From Minisyncoccota bacterium (lineage in GTDB: Bacteria > Patescibacteriota > Minisyncoccia > UBA6257 > GWB1-50-10), in contig JBAYJE010000003.1 in the NCBI GenBank assembly GCA_041665265.1, positions 1,424-65,423 on the forward strand: 64,000 nucleotides of DNA, in the 5' to 3' direction. The notes under the pieces are model-generated. The model was not told where the DNA came from. It ran no database searches and saw nothing but the letters and a program-made list of their open reading frames with translations. The position numbers were made by a program, and so were the translations under genes. Positions 1 to 8,086 of this stretch are shown here, piece by piece. Each line of letters begins with the position of its first letter. The stretch's first letter is position 1.

Positions 1-2147
1 AGTCTTGTAAGGAAATAATCCAAATTGTGTCGTAATCCCATTCCAACATTCGGATCGCCCATTTCAAGCAATGAATACTCAGGTATTGTATCCAAGAGAT
101 AAGTAATTATTTCCTTTGCGATATCATTTGGCAGCTCTCGTGCGTTATTTACTAATATGCGCCACAGTCTTTCTCTTGGGTATTCGCCTTCCGTATAAGC
201 AAATTTTGGATCTTCAAATGCTAAAGCGACAGTCGATGTTTTGTTAATAATCTTTTCTCTCCAAGTCATGTAAAACCGATGCTGTCCGATATCCGCAGGC
301 TTCGATAGATTTACGATCAAGTCTAAATACGTTTCGAGATTTCTTCCGTTAGTCCAACCACCATTGAAACAAGCGAGTGATGTGCGCACATCCTCTGGTA
401 CGCTGTCTATACGAGCGTAGTTATTGCTTCGCGGAAAATCTTCTCCAATTGCCTTGAGCCTCACGTCAACATTAAATACTTGATCCAGAAGAAAACGTTG
501 ATGACTGTCTTTCGGAAAGAGATCAAGATATTCCTTGTAGTAGGTTGAGTTTTTGTAAGTAGAGTCGCTAAAGGACGAACGTTGTTGACTATTAGTATCT
601 TCAGGATAGCCATCCTCGTGCGGTAAGACGAGTGAAAAGAATCCACGTCCGCCTTTTGTTTCAGTATCATATATTTTACGAAAAACGCTGGGGTAATGAA
701 TGTAAATCAGTAATAGATTTATAAGATCTCTTTTGTCGAAATCGCTGTTTTGAAAGTTGGTGTTTTGAAGATCAAACATCAAAACTGTATTGATAAGACG
801 TTTTAGTTTTCTTACGTCTCCTATAAAGGGGAGGTAGCGGTGATACGTGGGTGATTTATAGATATCAAGCAGGCCACCAACGGCTTGGCGCATTGGCAGC
901 GGATCGACAAGGCTAGTAGTTAGAGTTTTTTCAAGATTGTCGGATACATATTTTGCTAGATCTGCTCTCTCCAGGTAGAGACTTATTTTTATATTCACAA
1001 ACTTTTCCAGGAATTCGCCAACCTTTTCTATATCAGGAGTTTCGGCTTCCAAGATGCCGATGTTCTCGGTATCGTAGCAAATGACATACGAGACATTAGG
1101 AAATGCAAAGCTCTTTCTAATAACAAACAATATATCTTTTATTTCAGCGAAGCTGATTCGATCGAGGTCATCGATGACAATTACTACCTTTTTGGGAAAA
1201 CGTTTTAGGACTGCGCCCAGGTCATCGCAAGCTTCATCGGCAGTATAATCAACCGCCAATGTCGGCAGAGTTAATCCAAATAAAGAAAACCTTCCTATCT
1301 CCTTAAGAAGTCGAGCATACTTAGAAATCAACGGCTTTATTTCTGGTATAAAGGAATCCTTCTGGATGGCGTGAATGAGACCATCAATAAAAATCTCAAG
1401 TAGGTTCGCAGTACCCAAATAACGCAAAGGGCTGAATTTATATATCACAACCTCTTCCTTGTACTTTTCATCCCAATATTCTTTACAGAAATTAATAAAA
1501 GTTGATTTACCAATACCCCAGGGCGCATCTACTCCAAACACAAAGCTTTCAGGCGATCCGCCATTATAGACCTGTTCAGCAAATCTCTCCGCCTTTTCTG
1601 AGAAATTAAGCAAGTCCGCTTCTTTCTTTTCCAGTTCCTTATCAACAACAAACGAAGAAGCTGTTTGCTTCTCTTTCAAAATCAGTACTAGTTGTCTGAG
1701 CATTACGAGGACTCCCAAAATGAACGGGCCGGAAACTATGGTGAGTGCTTGGGTAATGTTCAGAGACGAAACAATGCGTACATCCCAGGTTGAGAGAAAA
1801 CCTCCCCAAGCAATACTCAACCAAATTCCAAAGCCGAGAGCTGCAAGGACATCGATGCGACCGCTTCTAAGTATCTTCTTAAGATCAGAAAAAATACCCC
1901 TCGCCAGCAGATATACAATCAAGAGAATAATGCCGAGTATGGAAAATAGTAGAGCCTTACTTTCGTAATTGTTTAAAATAACCCATTGATTAATCTTGTC
2001 CGAGAGTAGGATTGATATATGCCATATCTCGGCGGTCAAAACACCAAGAAAAGCCGTTTTGGTCAGCATTACAAGATTCGCTGTGACAATCCGAAAGTCG
2101 GACAGAGATTCTTTCAGCTTGATGATGGGTTTTTTAATATTTGGCAT
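1..2147 (-). CDS. KAP-like P-loop NTPase with an N-terminal 3-TM module. The C-terminus runs off the window start, so the gene is partial.
   Basis: Reverse-strand translation starts at ATG 2145-2147 (MPNIKKPIIKLKESL...) and has no stop through position 1. There are three hydrophobic helices, then Walker A 'GVDAPWGIGKST' and Walker B 'VVIVIDDLDRISF', which are KAP-family signatures. It is missing from the ORF track because no stop codon lies inside the window. Confidence 0.55.
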   Translation of the reverse strand, partial: MPNIKKPIIKLKESLSDFRIVTANLVMLTKTAFLGVLTAEIWHISILLSDKINQWVILNNYESKALLFSILGIILLIVYLLARGIFSDLKKILRSGRIDVLAALGFGIWLSIAWGGFLSTWDVRIVSSLNITQALTIVSGPFILGVLVMLRQLVLILKEKQTASSFVVDKELEKKEADLLNFSEKAERFAEQVYNGGSPESFVFGVDAPWGIGKSTFINFCKEYWDEKYKEEVVIYKFSPLRYLGTANLLEIFIDGLIHAIQKDSFIPEIKPLISKYARLLKEIGRFSLFGLTLPTLAVDYTADEACDDLGAVLKRFPKKVVIVIDDLDRISFAEIKDILFVIRKSFAFPNVSYVICYDTENIGILEAETPDIEKVGEFLEKFVNIKISLYLERADLAKYVSDNLEKTLTTSLVDPLPMRQAVGGLLDIYKSPTYHRYLPFIGDVRKLKRLINTVLMFDLQNTNFQNSDFDKRDLINLLLIYIHYPSVFRKIYDTETKGGRGFFSLVLPHEDGYPEDTNSQQRSSFSDSTYKNSTYYKEYLDLFPKDSHQRFLLDQVFNVDVRLKAIGEDFPRSNNYARIDSVPEDVRTSLACFNGGWTNGRNLETYLDLIVNLSKPADIGQHRFYMTWREKIINKTSTVALAFEDPKFAYTEGEYPRERLWRILVNNARELPNDIAKEIITYLLDTIPEYSLLEMGDPNVGMGLRHNLDYFLTR

Positions 2148-2177
2148 AATGAATACGCTAATTATCCACCTTTTAGA

Positions 2178-2206
2178 TTGATATGTAAAGAATTGTAAAG
2201 TATAAT
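2178..2206 (+). promoter_or_regulatory. Sigma70-like promoter (TTGATA-17-TATAAT) for the HTH/R/M operon. It sits in the divergent region shared with the KAP-like gene.
   Basis: TTGATA at 2178-2183, a 17-nt spacer, and TATAAT at 2201-2206. This is 7 nt upstream of the ATG at 2213. Confidence 0.5.
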
Positions 2207-2212
2207 GAGTGT

Positions 2213-2398
2213 GTGGATATGAATAAAAATAATGAGTTTTACAGAGCAGAAGATCTGGCCCAGAAATTAAAGGTCAATATTATGACCATTTACAGATATA
2301 TTAAAAGTCGCAAATTAAAGGCTTACAAAATAGGAAAAGAGTTTAGAATTGATAAGAAAGAATTTGAGTCTTTTTTAGATAAAGCAAAAACTAATTAA
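2213..2398 (+). CDS. Small HTH DNA-binding protein of the excisionase/MerR-like family. It may be the controller (C-protein-like) of the R-M pair.
   Basis: 61 aa. 'AEDLAQKLKVNIMTIYRYIKSRKL' is a helix-turn-helix. It is immediately upstream of, and co-oriented with, the R and M genes. Confidence 0.5.
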   Translation: MDMNKNNEFYRAEDLAQKLKVNIMTIYRYIKSRKLKAYKIGKEFRIDKKEFESFLDKAKTN

Positions 2399-2400
2399 AT

Positions 2401-3105
2401 ATGACCAACAAAGAAGACGAAATTATTGACCCAGTGGAAGCCGTGGATGAGGTTGAACTCAACGCTGCCACAGCGACAGCTTCCCCGGAGGAAAAAATAA
2501 GAATTCTCGCCGATAAGTATGCTGTCGCACTTAAGGGCAAAATAGATGAACGAGTAAGTGTAATGAAAAGCGATGACAATTCTCACTACCTCATTTATAG
2601 AGTTTTAGGTATCTCAGAAAAAGAGGGTGAGCTGATAGACGTCTATCAAAATAAGGGTCGTTTCTTGTATAAATACGCTGGCTCTTTCCTTGAAGCAGCT
2701 GCGATCCTTTGCTTCAAGGAAAAGTTTCCAGAAGCGCAAGCAAAACTTCGAATTCCAAATACTATAGGACAACGCCCCGCAACCTTCGAGATTGATTGTT
2801 TGATAGAAAATGATGCGTATGAGATCAAATGGAGAGACGCAACTACCGATGGGGATCATATCACCAAAGAGCATACGCGTTTGAAAAATATTAATAACGC
2901 TCACTATCGGCCTATAAGAGTGATGTTTTATTATCCAAACAGAGAACAAGCAATTAGGATACAACAAACCTTAAAGACACTTTATCTTGGTTTTAAGGGT
3001 GAATACTATTTTGGTGATGAAGCGTGGGAGCATATACATACAAAAACAGGAATTGATCTAAAGGGTATCTTAATCAAGATAGCTGAAGAACGAAACGGAA
3101 AATAA
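2401..3105 (+). CDS. Putative Type II restriction endonuclease of the PD-(D/E)xK type
   Basis: 234 aa. 'FEIDCLIENDAYEIKW' fits a D...(D/E)xK nuclease motif. There is a 3-nt gap to the HTH gene and a 2-nt gap to the downstream MTase. It has an acidic N-terminal tail. Confidence 0.45.
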   Translation: MTNKEDEIIDPVEAVDEVELNAATATASPEEKIRILADKYAVALKGKIDERVSVMKSDDNSHYLIYRVLGISEKEGELIDVYQNKGRFLYKYAGSFLEAAAILCFKEKFPEAQAKLRIPNTIGQRPATFEIDCLIENDAYEIKWRDATTDGDHITKEHTRLKNINNAHYRPIRVMFYYPNREQAIRIQQTLKTLYLGFKGEYYFGDEAWEHIHTKTGIDLKGILIKIAEERNGK

Positions 3106-3107
3106 TT

Positions 3108-4289
3108 ATGCAATTAGAGAATCAAATCATAAAAGGAGATTGTCTCGATGTCCTCAAAAGGGTTGAAGATCAATCCGTAGATTTGATTTACCTTGATCCT
3201 CCTTTCTTTACACAAAGGCGGCACTCACAGAAGACCAGAGATAACGCGAAAGAATATGCATTTGAAGATGTATGGGATGACATACATCAATACACCTCTT
3301 ATCTGGAATCAAGGATGAGAGAGAGCCGGAGAGTTTTAAAAGACAGCGGAAGTCTTTTTCTTCATTGTGATAAGAAAGCAGTGCATCACCTTCGGGTAAT
3401 GCTTGATAAAGTGTTTGGAGAAGAAAATTTTAGAAGTGAAATTATTTGGACTTATAGACGATGGTCTAACTCAAAGGAAGGGCTTTTGAACGCTCACCAA
3501 AATATTTTATTTTATTCAAAAACTGCCAAGTTCAAATTTAATAAGATACTAACTGATTATTCACCTACAACGAATTTAGACCAGATACTGCAGGCCCGTG
3601 AACGTAATGGACATAACAAGTCTGTGTACAAAAGGGATGTGAATGGAGAAGTTGTATTAGGCAAAGAAAAACTAGGGGTACCTCTTTCTGATGTATGGGA
3701 TATACCATTTTTAAATCCTAAAGCCGAAGAAAGAGTTGGATATCCCACTCAGAAACCAGTGATTTTGTTAGAGAAAATAATCTCCCTGGCTTCACATGAG
3801 GGAGATGTGATCCTCGATCCGTTTTGTGGTAGTGGCACTACGCTTGTTGCAGCCCTACTATTAGGCAGAAAGTATATCGGGATCGACACCTCGAAAGAGG
3901 CGGTTGAACTAACGAAAAAACGATTACTAAACCCTATCAAAACAGAATCTCACTTACTTAGAAGAGGTAAAGACGCCTATATAAATAAAGATGAGTCGAT
4001 ACGAACAATATTATTCCAAATGGATGCAAACGTTGTACAGAGAAACAAAGGAATAGATGGATTCCTCAAACAACATTATAAAGGCAGGCCAGTTGCAGTG
4101 TATATTCAAAGACCCGAACAATCCTTCTCAGATGCCTTATCTCTTTTAAAGAAAGCGAGTGATAAAAAGGGGGTTATCAGAAAAGTCTTAGTTAGAACCA
4201 ATGTGCCATCAGGTATCGCTGTTAAAATTGATAGCGAACTTCAAAATGAAGACATAGTAATAATCGATCACCCTCAGCATGTGATGTGA
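3108..4289 (+). CDS. DNA methyltransferase, beta-class amino-MTase (probably N6-adenine), with a C-terminal extension of about 130 aa
   Basis: Motif IV 'LDPPFF' comes before motif I 'DPFCGSGTT' (beta permutation). 'IKGDCLDVLKRVEDQSVDLIYLDPPF' is typical of this class. There are about 130 extra residues after the catalytic core. Confidence 0.8.
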   Translation: MQLENQIIKGDCLDVLKRVEDQSVDLIYLDPPFFTQRRHSQKTRDNAKEYAFEDVWDDIHQYTSYLESRMRESRRVLKDSGSLFLHCDKKAVHHLRVMLDKVFGEENFRSEIIWTYRRWSNSKEGLLNAHQNILFYSKTAKFKFNKILTDYSPTTNLDQILQARERNGHNKSVYKRDVNGEVVLGKEKLGVPLSDVWDIPFLNPKAEERVGYPTQKPVILLEKIISLASHEGDVILDPFCGSGTTLVAALLLGRKYIGIDTSKEAVELTKKRLLNPIKTESHLLRRGKDAYINKDESIRTILFQMDANVVQRNKGIDGFLKQHYKGRPVAVYIQRPEQSFSDALSLLKKASDKKGVIRKVLVRTNVPSGIAVKIDSELQNEDIVIIDHPQHVM

Positions 4290-4298
4290 ATAACTTCA

Positions 4299-4335
4299 TT
4301 TGACGACTTATTACCAAACCCGCTAAAATATAAAT
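4299..4335 (+). promoter_or_regulatory. Promoter-like element (TTGACG ... TAAAAT/TATAAAT) at the start of a 320-bp noncoding stretch
   Basis: TTGACG at 4299-4304. The -10-like sequences TAAAAT at 4324-4329 and TATAAAT at 4329-4335 have non-ideal spacing of 19-24 nt. Confidence 0.25.
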
Positions 4336-4362
4336 ATCAGAGTTAGTTAGTCTGACGGCGAC

Positions 4363-4471
4363 TGAATCTCTTCAGTCTAAACGTGACGGGGCTACGACTT
4401 CTGTTATCAAACCTTTTCGCATGTGCGGATCGGAGCTTGATGACAAGAGTCGTGGCCCCTTTTTCGTTTTC
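4363..4471 (+). ncRNA. Candidate structured small RNA or terminator module. It has hairpin 4363-4380 plus a long 12-bp-closed stem-loop at 4388-4459 followed by a U-tract.
   Basis: GACTGAA-tctc-TTCAGTC is a perfect 7-bp hairpin. GGGGCTACGACT at 4388-4399 pairs with AGTCGTGGCCCC at 4448-4459 (11/12, one G-U), and the enclosed 48 nt contains the CGCAtgTGCG hairpin. Then comes TTTTTCGTTTTC at 4460-4471. Confidence 0.35.
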
Positions 4472-4545
4472 TAACTAACTCCCGATAAATTCCCTCTGAG
4501 GCTAAGGTGCCCTGAAGATGTAACGACGAATTAGAAGAACCAGAC

Positions 4546-4585
4546 AAGGCTAGTCCCCGACGGGGCCTGGCTTTTATTTTATTAA
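4546..4585 (+). terminator. Rho-independent terminator-like hairpin (CCCCGACGGGG core) plus a T-run
   Basis: GTCCCCGACGGGGCC with an extended imperfect stem, followed by TTTTATTTTATT. Confidence 0.4.
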
Positions 4586-4612
4586 CCAATTAATCAATAA
4601 CAAAAAAACAAT

Positions 4613-4813
4613 ATGTTACCCAACGAAGCAGTGCAGGAGTTTAAAGAGCTTTACGAAAAACGCTATGGAGTGAAGTTGTCCGATGTCGAAGCAACGCTCA
4701 GAGCCAATAACCTTTTTAAGCTCTATAAGATCACCTATATGGGTGAGCCATCAGTAGATGATTTCAAAGAAAAATTGAATACAAGTCATGATCTCAAGCC
4801 AGACAACAATTAG
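4613..4813 (+). CDS. Hypothetical small protein (66 aa)
   Basis: It is an ORF with an ATG immediately after the A-rich tract. There are no recognisable motifs. It overlaps the next gene by 26 nt. Confidence 0.3.
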   Translation: MLPNEAVQEFKELYEKRYGVKLSDVEATLRANNLFKLYKITYMGEPSVDDFKEKLNTSHDLKPDNN

Positions 4814-5096
4814 CGAAATTCAGTTCTACCCGGTTAAACCCCAAGATGGCCTACTTGGGTTTGTTTCGTTTGTCCTGGACGGCAAATTCTGGATGGGATC
4901 GGTAGCGGTGTTCACCCGCAAAGACGGCGGGTATCGGCTCGTATACCCCACGCGCAAAGTGGCCGGGCAGAATGTGAACATTTTCCATCCGATTAATCAG
5001 GCCGTTGGCCAACAGGTCGAAGCAGTTATCAGTGAAAAAGTAGCAGAAATATTTAGTGAACAATATGGAACAACCGAACCAGAAAACTCGTGGTAA
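4788..5096 (+). CDS. spoVG: SpoVG-family nucleic-acid-binding protein
   Basis: 'FVLDGKFWMGSVAVFTRKDGGYRLVYPTRKVAGQNVNIFHPINQAVGQQVEAV' aligns with the SpoVG core, including the HPIN motif. This is the start of the ~50%-GC segment. Confidence 0.6.
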   Translation: MISSQTTISEIQFYPVKPQDGLLGFVSFVLDGKFWMGSVAVFTRKDGGYRLVYPTRKVAGQNVNIFHPINQAVGQQVEAVISEKVAEIFSEQYGTTEPENSW

Positions 5097-5472
5097 GAAC
5101 TTAAACTTCTTTCCGGCCCCGCATACGCCGTTCGACAACGACCGGCTGCGCGCCTTGCTCAGTCACGCCGAGCGGGATTTTTTAATGGTGCTTTGTCATC
5201 TCTCCAATCGCTTTGCTGATAAGGACGGCTGGTTTTGGCATACCGATGCTCCGTTCACCGGACAGAGTGGAAGGATTCGGGGACTTACGTCATATGGCTT
5301 TGGTACGACCACCTGCAAACGCGTCAGAAAGAAACTACTTTCGCTTGGCCTGATCGAAACAAAAGGAAACCCACACAAGCGCGGCCGAACCGGTGGCACC
5401 GTTTATCGGATCAACAAAGAAATGTTGGGAATGGCTATAGACCATAGTGGGCCTAAGAACAGACCACCATGA
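5056..5472 (+). CDS. Winged-helix DNA-binding protein, replication-initiator or phage-regulator-like
   Basis: 138 aa, basic. 'KRVRKKLLSLGLIETKGNPHKRGRTGGTVYRINKEML' looks like a wHTH wing. It lies inside the GC-rich segment next to the recombinase. Confidence 0.35.
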   Translation: MNNMEQPNQKTRGKNLNFFPAPHTPFDNDRLRALLSHAERDFLMVLCHLSNRFADKDGWFWHTDAPFTGQSGRIRGLTSYGFGTTTCKRVRKKLLSLGLIETKGNPHKRGRTGGTVYRINKEMLGMAIDHSGPKNRPP

Positions 5473-5697
5473 TACTTACCTTCAGACCACTAAGGTCTCC
5501 CTAGTAAGAAAGAGGAATTAAGAATTAAAAGTAAGATTAGTTGTAAATAACAACAGCAAAAGCTGTCCAATGTTGAAAGGTTCGGGGGTTGGGCAACTCT
5601 TGGGCAAAACTTGGGTGGATTTTGAGGATGTTTGACTTCATCCAAGCATTAGCAGATGTTGTACCTAGACCAATAAAAATTAACGAAAAATAACCAT

Positions 5698-6429
5698 ATG
5701 ACAAAAAATATAAGAATTACAGCAGTAATCGCCATTGTAGCGATCATTGGGGTGACTTACGGGATTTACACCCTTTCAGGACACAAAGCCCCGCGTGAGG
5801 GCAATGTTGCGCCCGTAGAAGGAACGGTAAGCCAGGCCGAACTAGACCGGGCAACCGCTTCCCTCAAAAGCGCAATTAACGTAGCTGATCAACTTTCCGG
5901 CACCACCGGCACAAGCTTCACCTTTCAGGCACAGCCGACCTATGGCCACTACGGGAACTTCGGTCTCGTAAAGTATGTGAACCAAGTTAAGGGCGTGGGG
6001 CTGGTTGATGAGACAGCCGTCACATTTCACGGCGAGACTGACAATGACAATGCCGAGGTCGATTCGAAAACCGGCCAAGTCATCTCTTTTCACCGATCCA
6101 TTGACCACACCAACCCCGGAAAAGAAAAAACTCAAGCGGAAATAGAAACCACTATGCGGATATTCCTCAATGAGGTGTACCCGGACTTTAAGCAGGTCGA
6201 GCCGACACTGACATTCAGTCCCGGTATAAAAGGCGTTCGCCTTAACAATGGCAATTACTTCTTTGACTGGGAGGATAACGACTACCAGAAGCAGCTGCCC
6301 GAAGGGGTTGAGACAGAACGTGCTCCGTTCATCCAGGTCGGTATTACTTCAAGCGGATATATCTTCAGCTACAACAACACGATTGATATTTACCGCAATG
6401 CGCTAAAAGAATTTAATCTCACCCAATAA
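5698..6429 (+). CDS. Hypothetical membrane-anchored (N-terminal TM) extracytoplasmic protein, element cargo
   Basis: N-terminal 'ITAVIAIVAIIGVTYGIYTL' is a TM helix and the remainder is hydrophilic. It ends 2 nt before the recombinase gene. Confidence 0.5.
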   Translation: MTKNIRITAVIAIVAIIGVTYGIYTLSGHKAPREGNVAPVEGTVSQAELDRATASLKSAINVADQLSGTTGTSFTFQAQPTYGHYGNFGLVKYVNQVKGVGLVDETAVTFHGETDNDNAEVDSKTGQVISFHRSIDHTNPGKEKTQAEIETTMRIFLNEVYPDFKQVEPTLTFSPGIKGVRLNNGNYFFDWEDNDYQKQLPEGVETERAPFIQVGITSSGYIFSYNNTIDIYRNALKEFNLTQ

Positions 6430-6431
6430 CT

Positions 6432-8045
6432 ATGCACCAGGAAGTATCACAAAAACTTAAATACTTCCTCTACGCAAGAAAGTCCTCTGAACAGGAGGAC
6501 AGACAAGTCGCTTCGATTGATTCGCAAATAGATTTTTTGAAAGATTTAGCAAAGCGTGAACACCTCGAGATCGTAGAGGTACTAACTGAATCCAAAAGTG
6601 CCAAAGCCCCGGGTAGGCCAATCTTTAACCAGATGACCGATCGGATTGAAAAGGGCGAAGCGCACGGCGTTATCTGCTGGAAGATAGACCGCCTAGCCCG
6701 CAATCCGGTGGACGGCGGTAAAGTGCAGTGGCTTTTACAAAGCAGCATTATCAAGCACATCAAGACCTTTGAGAGAAGCTATTACCCGTCTGATAATGTG
6801 CTCCTCATTAGCGTGGAGCTGGGCATGGCCAACCAATACATCCGTGACTTGGCCATCAATTCCCAGCGTGGAGTCAAAACCAAAGCAGCAACCGGCTGGT
6901 TCCCGGCCCCAGCTCCGATCGGATATTTGAACATAGCCGACAACGAATCAGGCATGAAAATTATCGGGAATGATCCGAAGCGTTTTGATCTGGTAAAAAA
7001 GATGTTTGAGCTGATGCTCACCGGTAATTATTCAGTACCGCGCATTCTTAAAATTGCTAACGGCGACTGGAGTTTCAGGATGCCGAGCGGACAGCCGATT
7101 GCCCGGAGCACGCTGTATAAACTTCTGACTGAGCCGTTTTATTACGGCCGGTATCAGTGGCCCAAAAAAGGCGGCATCTGGTACCAGGGCAAGCACGAAC
7201 CGATGATCACCGAAGAACAGTTTGACCGCATTCAGGAACTGCTGGGCCGAAAAGGAAAACCGCGCCCCAAAGTCCACGAATTTGCCTATACCGGCATGAT
7301 CCGCTGCGGTGAATGTGGTTGCCTCATCACGGCCGAAGAAAAGACTAAGCGTAATCAGAATGGCAACGTACATCACTACACTTACTATCACTGCACCAAA
7401 CGAAAAGGCCCCTGCACCCAAAGATGCGTCGAAGTAAAAGCCCTCGAGGTAGAAATCCAGAAAGCCCTTGCCACGATCGAGATACCGGAAGAATTTCACG
7501 ACTGGGCCATGAACTGGCTCCGGGTTGAGAACGCAAAAGAATCAGTTGACCGGAATACTATCCTGGCCACCCAGCAGAGAACGTATGAAGCATGTCTGAG
7601 AAAAATTGACCGGCTCATCGACATGAGAGCAGCCGGAGAAATAAGCGAAGAAGAATTTATAACAAAGAAAAATGAAAGTTTGAAAGAGAAAGCAAAACTT
7701 CAGGCACTGCTCAAAGCGACAGATGAACGAGCAGACAGCTGGCTTCAGACAGCAGAGCAAATACTTATATTCGCACAGGATGCACGGGAAAAGTTCGCCG
7801 GAGGCACACTTTCGGCAAAGCGCACGGTACTTTCAGCCCTTGGTTCGAACCTCCTGCTAAAAGACAAAAAACTCAATGGTGAACTGGATAAAGCCTTGTT
7901 ACCGCTGCAAAGGATCGCAGAAGCCGTCCGCGAGCATGCAAGACGGTTCGAACCTCTAACAAATCCAAGAAACAAACTGACATTCGAGGAACTTTGCATG
8001 CAAAGTCCAAACTGGCTGCGGGACCTGGATTCGAACCAAGATTGA
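6432..8045 (+). CDS. Large serine recombinase (integrase)
   Basis: N-terminal resolvase catalytic domain 'YARKSSEQEDRQVASIDSQ' (Ser nucleophile) and 'KIDRLARN', then a recombinase domain and a Cys-rich zinc ribbon 'CGECGCLITAEE...YYHCTKRKGPC'. It is 537 aa, and the last 33 nt overlap the tRNA-Gln 3' end. Confidence 0.9.
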   Translation: MHQEVSQKLKYFLYARKSSEQEDRQVASIDSQIDFLKDLAKREHLEIVEVLTESKSAKAPGRPIFNQMTDRIEKGEAHGVICWKIDRLARNPVDGGKVQWLLQSSIIKHIKTFERSYYPSDNVLLISVELGMANQYIRDLAINSQRGVKTKAATGWFPAPAPIGYLNIADNESGMKIIGNDPKRFDLVKKMFELMLTGNYSVPRILKIANGDWSFRMPSGQPIARSTLYKLLTEPFYYGRYQWPKKGGIWYQGKHEPMITEEQFDRIQELLGRKGKPRPKVHEFAYTGMIRCGECGCLITAEEKTKRNQNGNVHHYTYYHCTKRKGPCTQRCVEVKALEVEIQKALATIEIPEEFHDWAMNWLRVENAKESVDRNTILATQQRTYEACLRKIDRLIDMRAAGEISEEEFITKKNESLKEKAKLQALLKATDERADSWLQTAEQILIFAQDAREKFAGGTLSAKRTVLSALGSNLLLKDKKLNGELDKALLPLQRIAEAVREHARRFEPLTNPRNKLTFEELCMQSPNWLRDLDSNQD

Positions 8046-8086
8046 CGGATTCAGAGTCCGCTGTCCTACCATTAGACGATCCCGCA
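8013..8086 (-). tRNA. tRNA-Gln (anticodon CUG)
   Basis: The reverse complement reads TGCGGGA-TC-GTCT-AATGGTA-GGAC-A-GCGGA-CTCTGAA-TCCGT-CAAT-CTTGG-TTCGAAT-CCAGG-TCCCGCA-G-CCA. It is a clean cloverleaf with an encoded CCA. Confidence 0.85.

Follow-up and report, generated by a model that had tools for sequence, protein, structure and literature searches.

A KAP-family NTPase gene beside an apparently exchangeable restriction-modification operon on a probable tRNA-Gln island of a Patescibacteria genome

Results

Organisation of the locus

The DNA examined here, a 64,000-nt stretch of contig JBAYJE010000003.1 from a Minisyncoccota bacterium (the window), is identical over its first 14,289 bases to three public metagenome contigs, and its encoded proteins are named 'Candidatus Paceibacterota bacterium' at NCBI. 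At its left end a minus-strand gene for a KAP-family P-loop NTPase (KAP) runs off the window start and is separated by a 65-bp control region from a divergent restriction-modification (R-M) operon, in which genes for a small helix-turn-helix (HTH) protein of the HTH_17 family, an ApaLI-family restriction endonuclease (REase) and a beta-class amino-methyltransferase (MTase) follow one another with 2-nt gaps. Beyond the operon lie small open reading frames (ORFs), a large serine recombinase gene and tRNA-Gln (Table 1). One of the identical contigs, L001 (L-numbers denote contigs or loci compared with the window), reaches 6.9 kb further upstream (window position = L001 position - 6893).

The original prediction, made from the letters of the window, described positions 1-4289 as a defence-type module and proposed profile searches on its NTPase, nuclease and MTase; these returned KAP_NTPase, RE_ApaLI and N6_N4_Mtase, respectively. 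It had also given the G+C content of the segment as ~36-38%; positions 1-4000 measure 37-41%, the norm for the window (average about 40%). The deviant stretch is the recombinase end (5000-8000), at 47-49% G+C vs 37-41% in the KAP and R-M part, a difference that fits a mosaic origin.

Table 1 Features of the KAP/R-M locus and associated genes (window coordinates unless a locus is named).
Feature	Position	Strand	Basis or remark
KAP P-loop NTPase gene	1..2147	-	ATG at 2147; runs past window start; Pfam PF07693
KAP all-helical C-terminal region, residues 461-1045 (window: up to 715)	1..767	-	Conserved, no known domain
KAP NTPase core, residues 186-456	780..1592	-	Pfam, Walker motifs, AAA+/STAND-like fold
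Walker B VVIVIDDLDR	1158-1187	-	Motif read in KAP translation
Walker A GVDAPWGIGKST	1500-1535	-	Motif read in KAP translation
KAP N-terminal membrane block, residues 22-157, four predicted transmembrane helices ahead of P-loop	1677..2084	-	Kyte-Doolittle hydropathy, 21-sequence alignment
Divergent control region, 65 bp	2148..2212		Between KAP and HTH genes
Candidate KAP promoter TTTACA-17-GATAAT	2189-2161	-	13 nt ahead of KAP ATG
HTH promoter TTGATA-17-TATAAT	2178-2206	+	11/12 consensus positions
Two TGTAAAG direct repeats (TGTAAAG-N3-TGTAAAG), 10 bp apart	2184-2200		Within HTH promoter spacer
HTH_17 protein, 61 aa (59 aa from ATG 2219, public gene call)	2213/2219..2398	+	PF12728 E 5e-12
ApaLI-family Type II REase, 234 aa	2401..3105	+	PF09499 E 8.9e-95
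REase PD-(D/E)xK motif D132-x8-E141-I-K143	2794-2829	+	Motif reading
Beta-class N6/N4 amino-MTase, 393 aa	3108..4289	+	PF01555 E 5e-57
MTase C-terminal domain, residues 275-393	3930..4286	+	Family-wide, conserved motif
Small island genes: 66-aa, SpoVG-like 102-aa, 138-aa and 243-aa ORFs	4613..6429	+	Profile matches, recurrence
Large serine recombinase (integrase), 537 aa	6432..8045	+	Resolvase + Recombinase + Zn_ribbon_recom; PHROG integrase E 5e-65
tRNA-Gln(CTG), probable integration target, right-hand island end	8013..8086	-	ARAGORN, Rfam
157-aa two-transmembrane gene	L071 10211-10684; L072 10150-10623; L077 9165-9638; L008 2545-3015		Conserved

R-M genes adjoining KAP in sister loci

Among 12 close KAP relatives (74-100% identical to the window KAP, itself included), R-M genes directly adjoin KAP in ten, and HTH_17 leads the R-M genes in nine of these ten (Table 2), strongly supporting the defence-island layout proposed originally. 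Seven kinds of R-M are represented: ApaLI; a gamma-class MTase of Eco57I/TaqI_C type; Type III Mod/Res; an EcoRI-type MTase with a GmrSD/HNH nuclease; MvaI/BcnI; DpnII; and AlwI. KAP is divergent from HTH-R-M in the window, L004 and L006, while the other seven R-M-adjacent loci are co-directional, in the order (HTH)-R-M-KAP, with the cluster ending 7-51 bp ahead of the KAP start codon. Loci where this NTPase lacks an adjacent R-M, which the original prediction regarded as telling against its reading if conserved and outside islands, do exist (L071, most distant loci and the minimal elements described below), the minimal ones being mobile elements.

Table 2 R-M and related genes accompanying the 12 close KAP relatives.
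Locus	KAP identity to window KAP	Genes alongside
Window	100%	HTH_17 + ApaLI-family R-M
L071	87%	No R-M nearby
L004	85%	HTH_17, gamma-class Eco57I/TaqI_C-type MTase, 246-aa ORF
L077	84%	HTH_17, DpnII system with two MTases
L072	82%	HTH_17, N6_N4 MTase, MvaI/BcnI REase
L078	81%	HTH_17, DpnII system with two MTases
L079	78%	HTH_17, two D12 MTases (one RadC-fused), AlwI REase
L005	78%	HTH_17, Type III Mod/Res
L016	78%	Type III Mod/Res behind 298-aa ORF; no HTH_17 match
L012	78%	HTH_17, EcoRI-type MTase, GmrSD-N/HNH nuclease
L074	76%	PLD/SNF2 helicase + Eco57I/MmeI-type MTase, past recombinase
L006	74%	HTH_17, Type III Mod/Res

DNA homology between the window and L004 or L006 spans KAP, the intergenic region and the HTH gene, and breaks off where the HTH gene stops (2398 and 2388). 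With L062, where HTH, ApaLI-type REase, MTase and recombinase genes are found without KAP, the homologous stretch runs instead from 2178, the first base of the HTH promoter, to 4185. Because homology breaks at both ends of the HTH unit, the HTH gene and its promoter are the common joint at which the modules recombined. The R-M linkage belongs to one island lineage, with R-M cargo replaced at least six times, and is no requirement of the KAP family; the locus behaves as a slot for exchangeable R-M cassettes. In L079 (1715-3532), the first MTase of the AlwI-type system is fused to an N-terminal RadC/UPF0758 domain.

The integrative island

The 3' end of the window recombinase gene overlaps tRNA-Gln, as the recombinase of L004 overlaps tRNA-Asn, and KAP lies at the opposite island end from the recombinase. 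Relatives of this recombinase adjoin KAP genes in at least 13 other loci, and sister elements abut tRNA-Asn, tRNA-Ser, tRNA-Arg and tRNA-Gln genes. In L006, tRNA-Ser follows the KAP stop codon. The linkage is reduced to its minimum in L007 (7782-12402), L019 (7738-12459) and L021 (7731-12297), where elements of about 4.6 kb consist of a tRNA, KAP and a convergent large serine recombinase. Since the sister elements show KAP-recombinase-tRNA linkage, KAP and the R-M genes are most likely island cargo, and positions 1-8086 plus about 1 kb upstream most likely constitute a roughly 9-kb integrative island at tRNA-Gln; the segment that was originally placed next to an integrative element is thus most likely part of it. 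To judge from L006, L007, L019 and L021, the left end is expected shortly after the end of KAP, some 1 kb upstream of position 1.

Among the small island genes, those encoding the 66-aa and 243-aa proteins recur in L048 and L078 beside related recombinases. The 102-aa protein matches SpoVG just over the cut-off (Pfam E 2.8e-7), and the overlapping 138-aa ORF, which falls with it within 4788-5472, weakly resembles a PHROG replication-initiation family (E 5e-4); together these matches are a hint of a module for regulation or replication. A perfect 14-nt palindrome, CTTTGCATGCAAAG, in the 3' end of the recombinase gene (7991-8012), 8 nt from the 3' end of tRNA-Gln, is a candidate attachment-site core, and a weak look-alike is found at L001 5505-5525.

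The 320-nt gap between the MTase gene and the next ORF (4290-4612) contains a promoter-like TTGACG-18-TAAAAT (4300-4329) and a terminator-like hairpin with a T-run (4545-4575). The sequence at 4336-4580 folds at -93.6 kcal/mol on the plus strand (z = -6.1 against 200 shuffles; z = -4.7 on the minus strand). It matches nothing in Rfam and has no counterpart by homology in sister islands, and could specify a structured RNA of about 240 nt or, alternatively, a DNA hairpin acting as island origin or recombination site.

Control region and HTH_17 protein

The divergent promoter originally read as TTGATA-17-TATAAT was recovered, and its spacer holds a pair of TGTAAAG repeats that occurs once in the 64 kb vs 0.05 expected. 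In L004, L012 and L062 the orthologous HTH gene is likewise preceded by the pair, which L006 keeps in part. Reverse-complemented, the first repeat supplies the -35 element of the candidate KAP promoter; GTGGATAAT, part of that promoter, is kept in L004 and not in the KAP-less L062.

The HTH protein, of the excisionase/MerR-like HTH_17 family, matches TIGR01764, 'excisionase family', at 39.9 bits (cut-off 28.8), PHROG 'excisionase and transcriptional regulator' families and, weakly, MAD1 of MADS (PADLOC mad1, E 1e-8). No match to HTH_3, the XRE fold of C proteins, was obtained for the 61-aa protein. Two HTH_17 subfamilies can be distinguished, one in the window, L004, L006, L012, L062 and L078 (68-74% mutual identity) and another in L005, L072, L077 and L079. 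All loci bearing HTH_17 have R-M genes downstream on the same strand, and the HTH_17 gene directly heads the R-M operon in 11 of 12, with gaps of 1-71 nt; in L023 a 220-aa ORF intervenes before the MTase gene. By tblastn at E<0.01, no HTH_17 homologue was detected in the KAP-recombinase loci L007, L019, L021, L009 and L074, nor in KAP loci without R-M. In L065, which carries another ApaLI-type system, an XRE-type HTH_3 gene occupies the slot taken by HTH_17 here; L069 has no HTH gene. The strict association with R-M and the sharing of this slot with HTH_3 favour a controller-like role for HTH_17 over that of island excisionase.

HTH_17 thus probably fills the role of a C protein at the R-M operon, binding the predicted TGTAAAG operator and autoregulating the operon. 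Like C genes, the window HTH gene lies just 5' of the REase gene and is co-transcribed with it, has repeats in its own promoter and leaves little or no 5' leader. The 61-aa protein, originally read as an HTH controller, is nevertheless HTH_17 and not a canonical XRE-type C protein. Furthermore, the repeats lie in the -35/-10 spacer of a near-consensus promoter, an arrangement suggesting simple autorepression rather than the activator-then-repressor scheme of C-boxes, and the HTH_17 lineage of the window (68-74% identity) heads at least five R-M kinds. From the same repeats the HTH protein would repress both divergent promoters, and KAP and R-M may be co-regulated, the candidate KAP -35 element lying within the HTH operator.

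The ApaLI-type R-M operon

The 234-aa protein, which had been put forward as a PD-(D/E)xK endonuclease candidate, is an ApaLI-family REase with this motif in place (PF09499, 316 bits, cut-off 25, 186/189 profile positions; PADLOC REase_II, E 4e-94). It has 5562 homologues, many of them in bacteria of the candidate phyla radiation (CPR). The beta-class assignment of the MTase also proved correct, DPPF at residue 30 preceding FCGSG at 239 (PF01555, 193.7 bits; PADLOC MTase_II PDLC03339, E 2e-169, residues 5-388). Its catalytic domain is similar to those of CcrM and M.RsrI. Among the candidates scored, 7988 MTase homologues were found; those listed, which include Bacillus and Anoxybacillus enzymes, are mostly 58-65% (up to 74%) identical over 91-99% of the length. 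An MTase of ~400 aa follows the REase in all ApaLI-type loci examined (L062, L065, L069).

The C-terminal domain of the MTase, originally noted as an unexplained ~130-aa extension, is real (120-130 residues), but is a property of the ~400-aa MTase family and not an oddity of this gene. It carries the motif VQRNxGIDGFL...IQ[KR]xxE, which recalls Mrr-type sites and not the canonical D...(D/E)xK, and matches no Pfam family above threshold; a restriction-endonuclease-like (PD-(D/E)xK) fold is predicted.

The REase matches its profile in full length, the R-M order and protein sizes are those of the other CPR loci examined, and the MTase shares ~60% identity (97% of its length) with a very large family including Bacillus enzymes. 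The R-M system is an ordinary representative of a very common family; what sets it apart is HTH_17 at the head of the operon, a position held in another member by an XRE-type C gene and vacant in a third. It can be taken with good support to be a Type IIP system restricting incoming DNA sequence-specifically, possibly at GTGCAC. Downstream of the ApaLI-type R-M genes of the CPR locus L069, 7854-9696 encodes a 170-aa ORF and a 447-aa SMODS/AGS_C protein, the latter by its domains a CBASS-like nucleotidyltransferase that marks another small defence cluster.

The KAP protein

The window contains 715 of the 1045 KAP codons. Extension upstream, which the original prediction had suggested as a way to see the C-terminus, was possible through L001 (5903-9040), which supplied the final 330 codons and hence the full protein of 1045 aa. 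Assignment of this minus-strand gene to the KAP family, first made from its Walker motifs, is confirmed by Pfam (KAP_NTPase, E 1.1e-37, 130.4 bits, cut-off 20, profile positions 5-287/293). Both motifs are intact (GIGKST and VIDDLDR) and invariant across an alignment of 21 family members, which was also used for hydropathy averaging and regional identity.

Family-averaged hydropathy gives four transmembrane (TM) segments with centres near residues 34, 75, 108 and 140, and a maximum of 1.3, below TM level, past residue 170, that is, none inside the NTPase domain. Three TM helices ahead of the P-loop had been counted originally; all do precede Walker A, but the number is four. Nor is their placement atypical, as had been supposed, the N-terminal TM block being fixed in the whole family of about 1000-aa proteins. 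The founding description of KAP (Aravind et al. 2004), as relayed by papers citing it, has TM helices inserted within the NTPase domain, which is not the arrangement here; a 2026 preprint places KAP TM helices outside the P-loop domain, so that this defining feature is itself disputed. The positive-inside rule predicts that the N-terminus and the NTPase are cytoplasmic.

Mean pairwise identity is lowest in the N-terminal TM block (36%) and reaches 65% in the NTPase core and 52-61% over residues 461-1025. The C-terminal ~580 residues contain invariant polar residues (e.g. C593/N595/G596, D782-R-G-G785 and C902-G-x-Y-D906), and gave no sequence match in Pfam, PADLOC, NCBIfam or PDB. An AlphaFold (AF2) model (pLDDT 72.7, pTM 0.49) places long helices at 5-159, followed by a P-loop core and a C-terminus built of helices throughout. 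Its nearest solved folds are RdrA of RADAR, ORC/Cdc6, SAMD9, NLR resistosomes, Apaf-1 and Avs3, all with low TM-scores (about 0.2) and over the NTPase core only.

The nearest PADLOC models, PifA (E 3e-28) and QatA (E 3e-11), likewise match the NTPase core only. Identity as QatA was rejected (NCBIfam 26 bits vs a cut-off of 600; no QueC, TatD or other Qat partner among the neighbours), as was identity as Tmn/YobI (no tmn model among the PADLOC matches; TM helices N-terminal, not between the Walker motifs).

Distribution and neighbours of the KAP family

A word-indexed search found 330 KAP homologues; nearly all of the best 120 have about 1000-1050 aa and share 44-87% identity along their whole length. 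When 1.84 billion cluster representatives were searched exhaustively, 225 clusters (50% identity) scored E<=1e-30, the best-scoring of them ~1000-aa proteins whose alignment spans about residues 20-1025, and the count rose to 2337 at E<=1e-10. A one-genome-per-species scan gave 56 loci, mostly in Patescibacteria, and full-length relatives with 28-55% identity occur in Paenibacillus, Cohnella, Methylophilaceae, Pseudomonas, Roseateles, Flavobacteriaceae and Ignavibacteriales. Copies on Burkholderia glumae plasmids (31-32% identity) adjoin integrases, a ChpB toxin-antitoxin pair, a second KAP gene and an AIPR protein. No family member was found among 50,697 phage records.

All-against-all BLAST of three genes on each side of 49 KAP loci (272 neighbours) revealed no universal partner gene, large serine recombinases, DNA methyltransferases and HTH_17 genes being those that recur. 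Pfam matches among the 272 neighbours include ResIII (6), N6_N4_Mtase (5), N6_Mtase (2), Eco57I (2) and Mrr_cat (2), one each of HindVP, XhoI, HaeII, EcoRI methylase, C5 methylase and D12 methylase, and seven Resolvase-type recombinases, alongside plain housekeeping genes. As a rough guide, R-M genes make up <1% of genes; roughly 20 R-M matches among 272 neighbours would be about a ten-fold excess over that guide. A housekeeping role for KAP was rejected in view of its patchy cross-phylum spread at 40% identity, plasmid copies and variable neighbourhoods, and by its distribution pattern KAP appears to be an accessory, horizontally moving gene.

A 157-aa two-TM protein with a weak Pfam PycTM match is encoded directly downstream of KAP in several close relatives, and not in the window island. 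It may be an optional KAP partner or effector.

Discussion

The locus is best read as an integrative island in which two separable defence modules meet at one 65-bp control region and R-M cassettes are exchanged, an interpretation held with moderate confidence. That these are two modules and not one machine is argued by the occurrence of KAP alone with a recombinase, of HTH-R-M without KAP, and of seven R-M kinds beside KAP. In the first module (HTH_17, ApaLI-type REase, beta-class MTase), the MTase would protect host sites while the REase cuts unmodified incoming DNA, and HTH_17, sitting on the two TGTAAAG repeats in its own promoter, would autoregulate the operon. The second would be KAP itself, a putative membrane-anchored, NTP-driven sensor-effector made up of four TM helices, the NTPase and the 580-aa helical region, which may act on infection via perturbation of the membrane or of ion balance, or by another route, providing a second layer of defence independent of the kind of R-M next to it.

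By analogy, KAP is most likely a single-gene membrane-anchored NTPase defence, because of this three-part layout and of the precedents of PifA, Tmn and the antiphage KAP proteins reported in 2026. The latter, KAP P-loop proteins with TM helices and uncharacterised C-terminal regions encoded beside serine recombinases, protect against phage, requiring Walker B and the C-terminal region, and EF_KAP does so without abortive infection (PMC13552941). PifA, as summarised in a later paper, causes membrane leakage on T7 infection, and Tmn senses phage RIIB and then exports Mg2+, resulting in plasmolysis (PMC13001434). Shared with PifA and EF_KAP are a large single protein with a KAP core, membrane association, a long C-terminal region without known domain, location on mobile elements beside serine recombinases, and Walker motifs that were essential in the examples tested. 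However, only the NTPase core resembles PifA (best-scoring stretch, residues 302-410 vs model positions 165-274/720) and PifA is reported to lack TM helices, whereas the window KAP has four. Of the TM helices of EF_KAP, one is N-terminal and one lies inside the NTPase domain, where all four of the window KAP are N-terminal, and EF_KAP-type loci carry small serine recombinases in place of a large one. The C-terminal region of the window KAP also forms a distinct, highly conserved family. In Tmn the TM helices are inserted in the P-loop domain, and with Avs/STAND proteins the window KAP shares a weak structural likeness in the NTPase core only, with no PADLOC Avs match.

The arrangement resembles defence hotspots in that conserved flanks (KAP on one side, HTH and its promoter on the other) with sharp breakpoints surround seven R-M kinds, but differs in the nature of its flanks, a candidate defence gene on one side and the regulator of the cargo on the other; elements of this type are small tRNA-targeting serine-recombinase islands of CPR bacteria.

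Several observations weigh against an interpretation as two defence modules on a mobile island. The 12 close relatives share ancestry, and therefore represent one lineage with repeated cassette replacement and not 12 independent events; beyond them, only 3 of about 44 distant KAP loci (L019, L023, L025) have an MTase within 4 kb, as judged by seed BLAST with seeds representing some MTase families only. No PADLOC or NCBIfam model matches KAP end to end, and its C-terminal region is nearly as conserved as the NTPase core, which is unlike fast-evolving Avs-type sensors and may point to an enzymatic function or a housekeeping-like ligand. GTGCAC is not avoided in the window (8 observed vs 10 expected), and REase and MTase genes are co-transcribed downstream of HTH with no good internal MTase promoter, an arrangement that does not account for how the MTase would precede the REase in a new host. 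Short-word BLAST and Smith-Waterman comparison of the tRNA-Gln end with 7 kb upstream gave, in place of attachment-site repeats, only weak 11-21-nt matches within ORFs, although large serine recombinases need only a few bases of identity and a missing repeat therefore says little. Exact-protein look-ups with the flanking DNA-alkylation-repair protein returned island-bearing contigs only, with no empty site.

A role for KAP in the element itself, such as post-segregational stabilisation, exclusion of competitors or a membrane function for an episymbiotic CPR host, with R-M as the real defence cargo, is possible but unlikely. It would suit the KAP-serine recombinase linkage, the most widely conserved of all and the sole content of the elements of about 4.6 kb, the absence of KAP from the phage records, and a conserved C-terminal region whose invariant polar residues look more like those of an enzyme or fixed-ligand binder than of a variable phage sensor. 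The family nevertheless extends to non-CPR bacteria and plasmids, where integrases, toxin-antitoxin and Abi-like genes surround it; R-M and other defence genes are over-represented among its neighbours, and KAP proteins of comparable design have been shown to be antiphage.

It is unlikely that KAP and R-M constitute one system, with KAP as a coupled guard that remains silent while restriction works and fires on anti-restriction factors or restriction products, in the manner of PrrC in EcoprrI. PrrC, like KAP, is an NTPase encoded within or beside an R-M operon, and it is regulated by the R-M proteins, which for KAP is hypothetical. The close spacing of KAP to the last gene of the cluster in co-directional L012, L005, L072, L077, L078 and L079 (a DUF7768 ORF being last in L078), the promoter region shared by KAP and HTH in the window, L004 and L006, and the position of the candidate KAP -35 element within the HTH operator would all suit such coupling, as would L023, a distant KAP homologue (45% identity) with the same divergent HTH-MTase layout, and the reported synergy of Tmn with PrrC and other ATP-sensing systems. 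Specific protein contacts are, however, unlikely when the partner R-M kinds and Pfam families differ while KAP remains 74-87% identical. KAP is moreover the only cargo of the minimal tRNA/KAP/recombinase elements, L071 (87% identity) and most distant loci have no adjacent R-M, and the same HTH-R-M block occurs without KAP.

A broader version, in which HTH_17, any R-M and KAP form a two-layer system under one regulator, KAP sensing a signal common to all restriction (its products or its failure), is likewise improbable. If true, it would be a guard agnostic to R-M type, generalising the PrrC-EcoprrI logic in minimal CPR genomes, and the presence of KAP would select for and stabilise whichever R-M cassette enters the slot.

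HTH_17 might serve the island as its excisionase (recombination directionality factor) rather than control R-M, as its best curated matches (to TIGR01764 and the PHROG excisionase families) and its constant presence on serine-recombinase islands, including L062 where the recombinase follows the MTase, could suggest. This is very unlikely given that it does not accompany the recombinase regardless of cargo, being found only at the head of R-M clusters and missing from the minimal elements, that an HTH_3 gene takes the same position in another ApaLI-type system, and that the direct repeats sit inside its own promoter. Large serine integrases usually work with recombination directionality factors that have no relationship to Xis-type HTH proteins.

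Two modules joined at a control region thus remain the preferred reading, of which parts are already known: genomic islands carrying R-M have been described in Patescibacteria (PMC12455944), and antiphage KAP NTPases linked to serine recombinases are published (PMC13552941). Four elements appear to be undescribed in the literature searched, namely the protein family combining four TM helices, a KAP core and a conserved C-terminal region; the carriage of KAP as signature cargo on tRNA-targeting mini-islands with a large serine recombinase; the slot for R-M exchange between KAP and, in nine of ten cases, HTH_17; and HTH_17 as a portable stand-in for a C protein. Nothing specific on HTH_17 regulators of R-M, or on KAP in Patescibacteria, was found in that literature.

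No current ideas are overturned, and the R-M system itself is routine. It does draw attention to the predicted REase-like C-terminal domain found family-wide on ApaLI-family MTases, for which there is no solved structure, and to a candidate class of non-XRE R-M controllers, apparently portable between R-M systems. CPR bacteria (Patescibacteria) have tiny genomes, usually without CRISPR, and their defence biology has barely been studied. The present comparison suggests that they circulate small tRNA-targeting serine-recombinase islands with KAP, a candidate single-gene defence protein with a 2026 precedent, as signature cargo.

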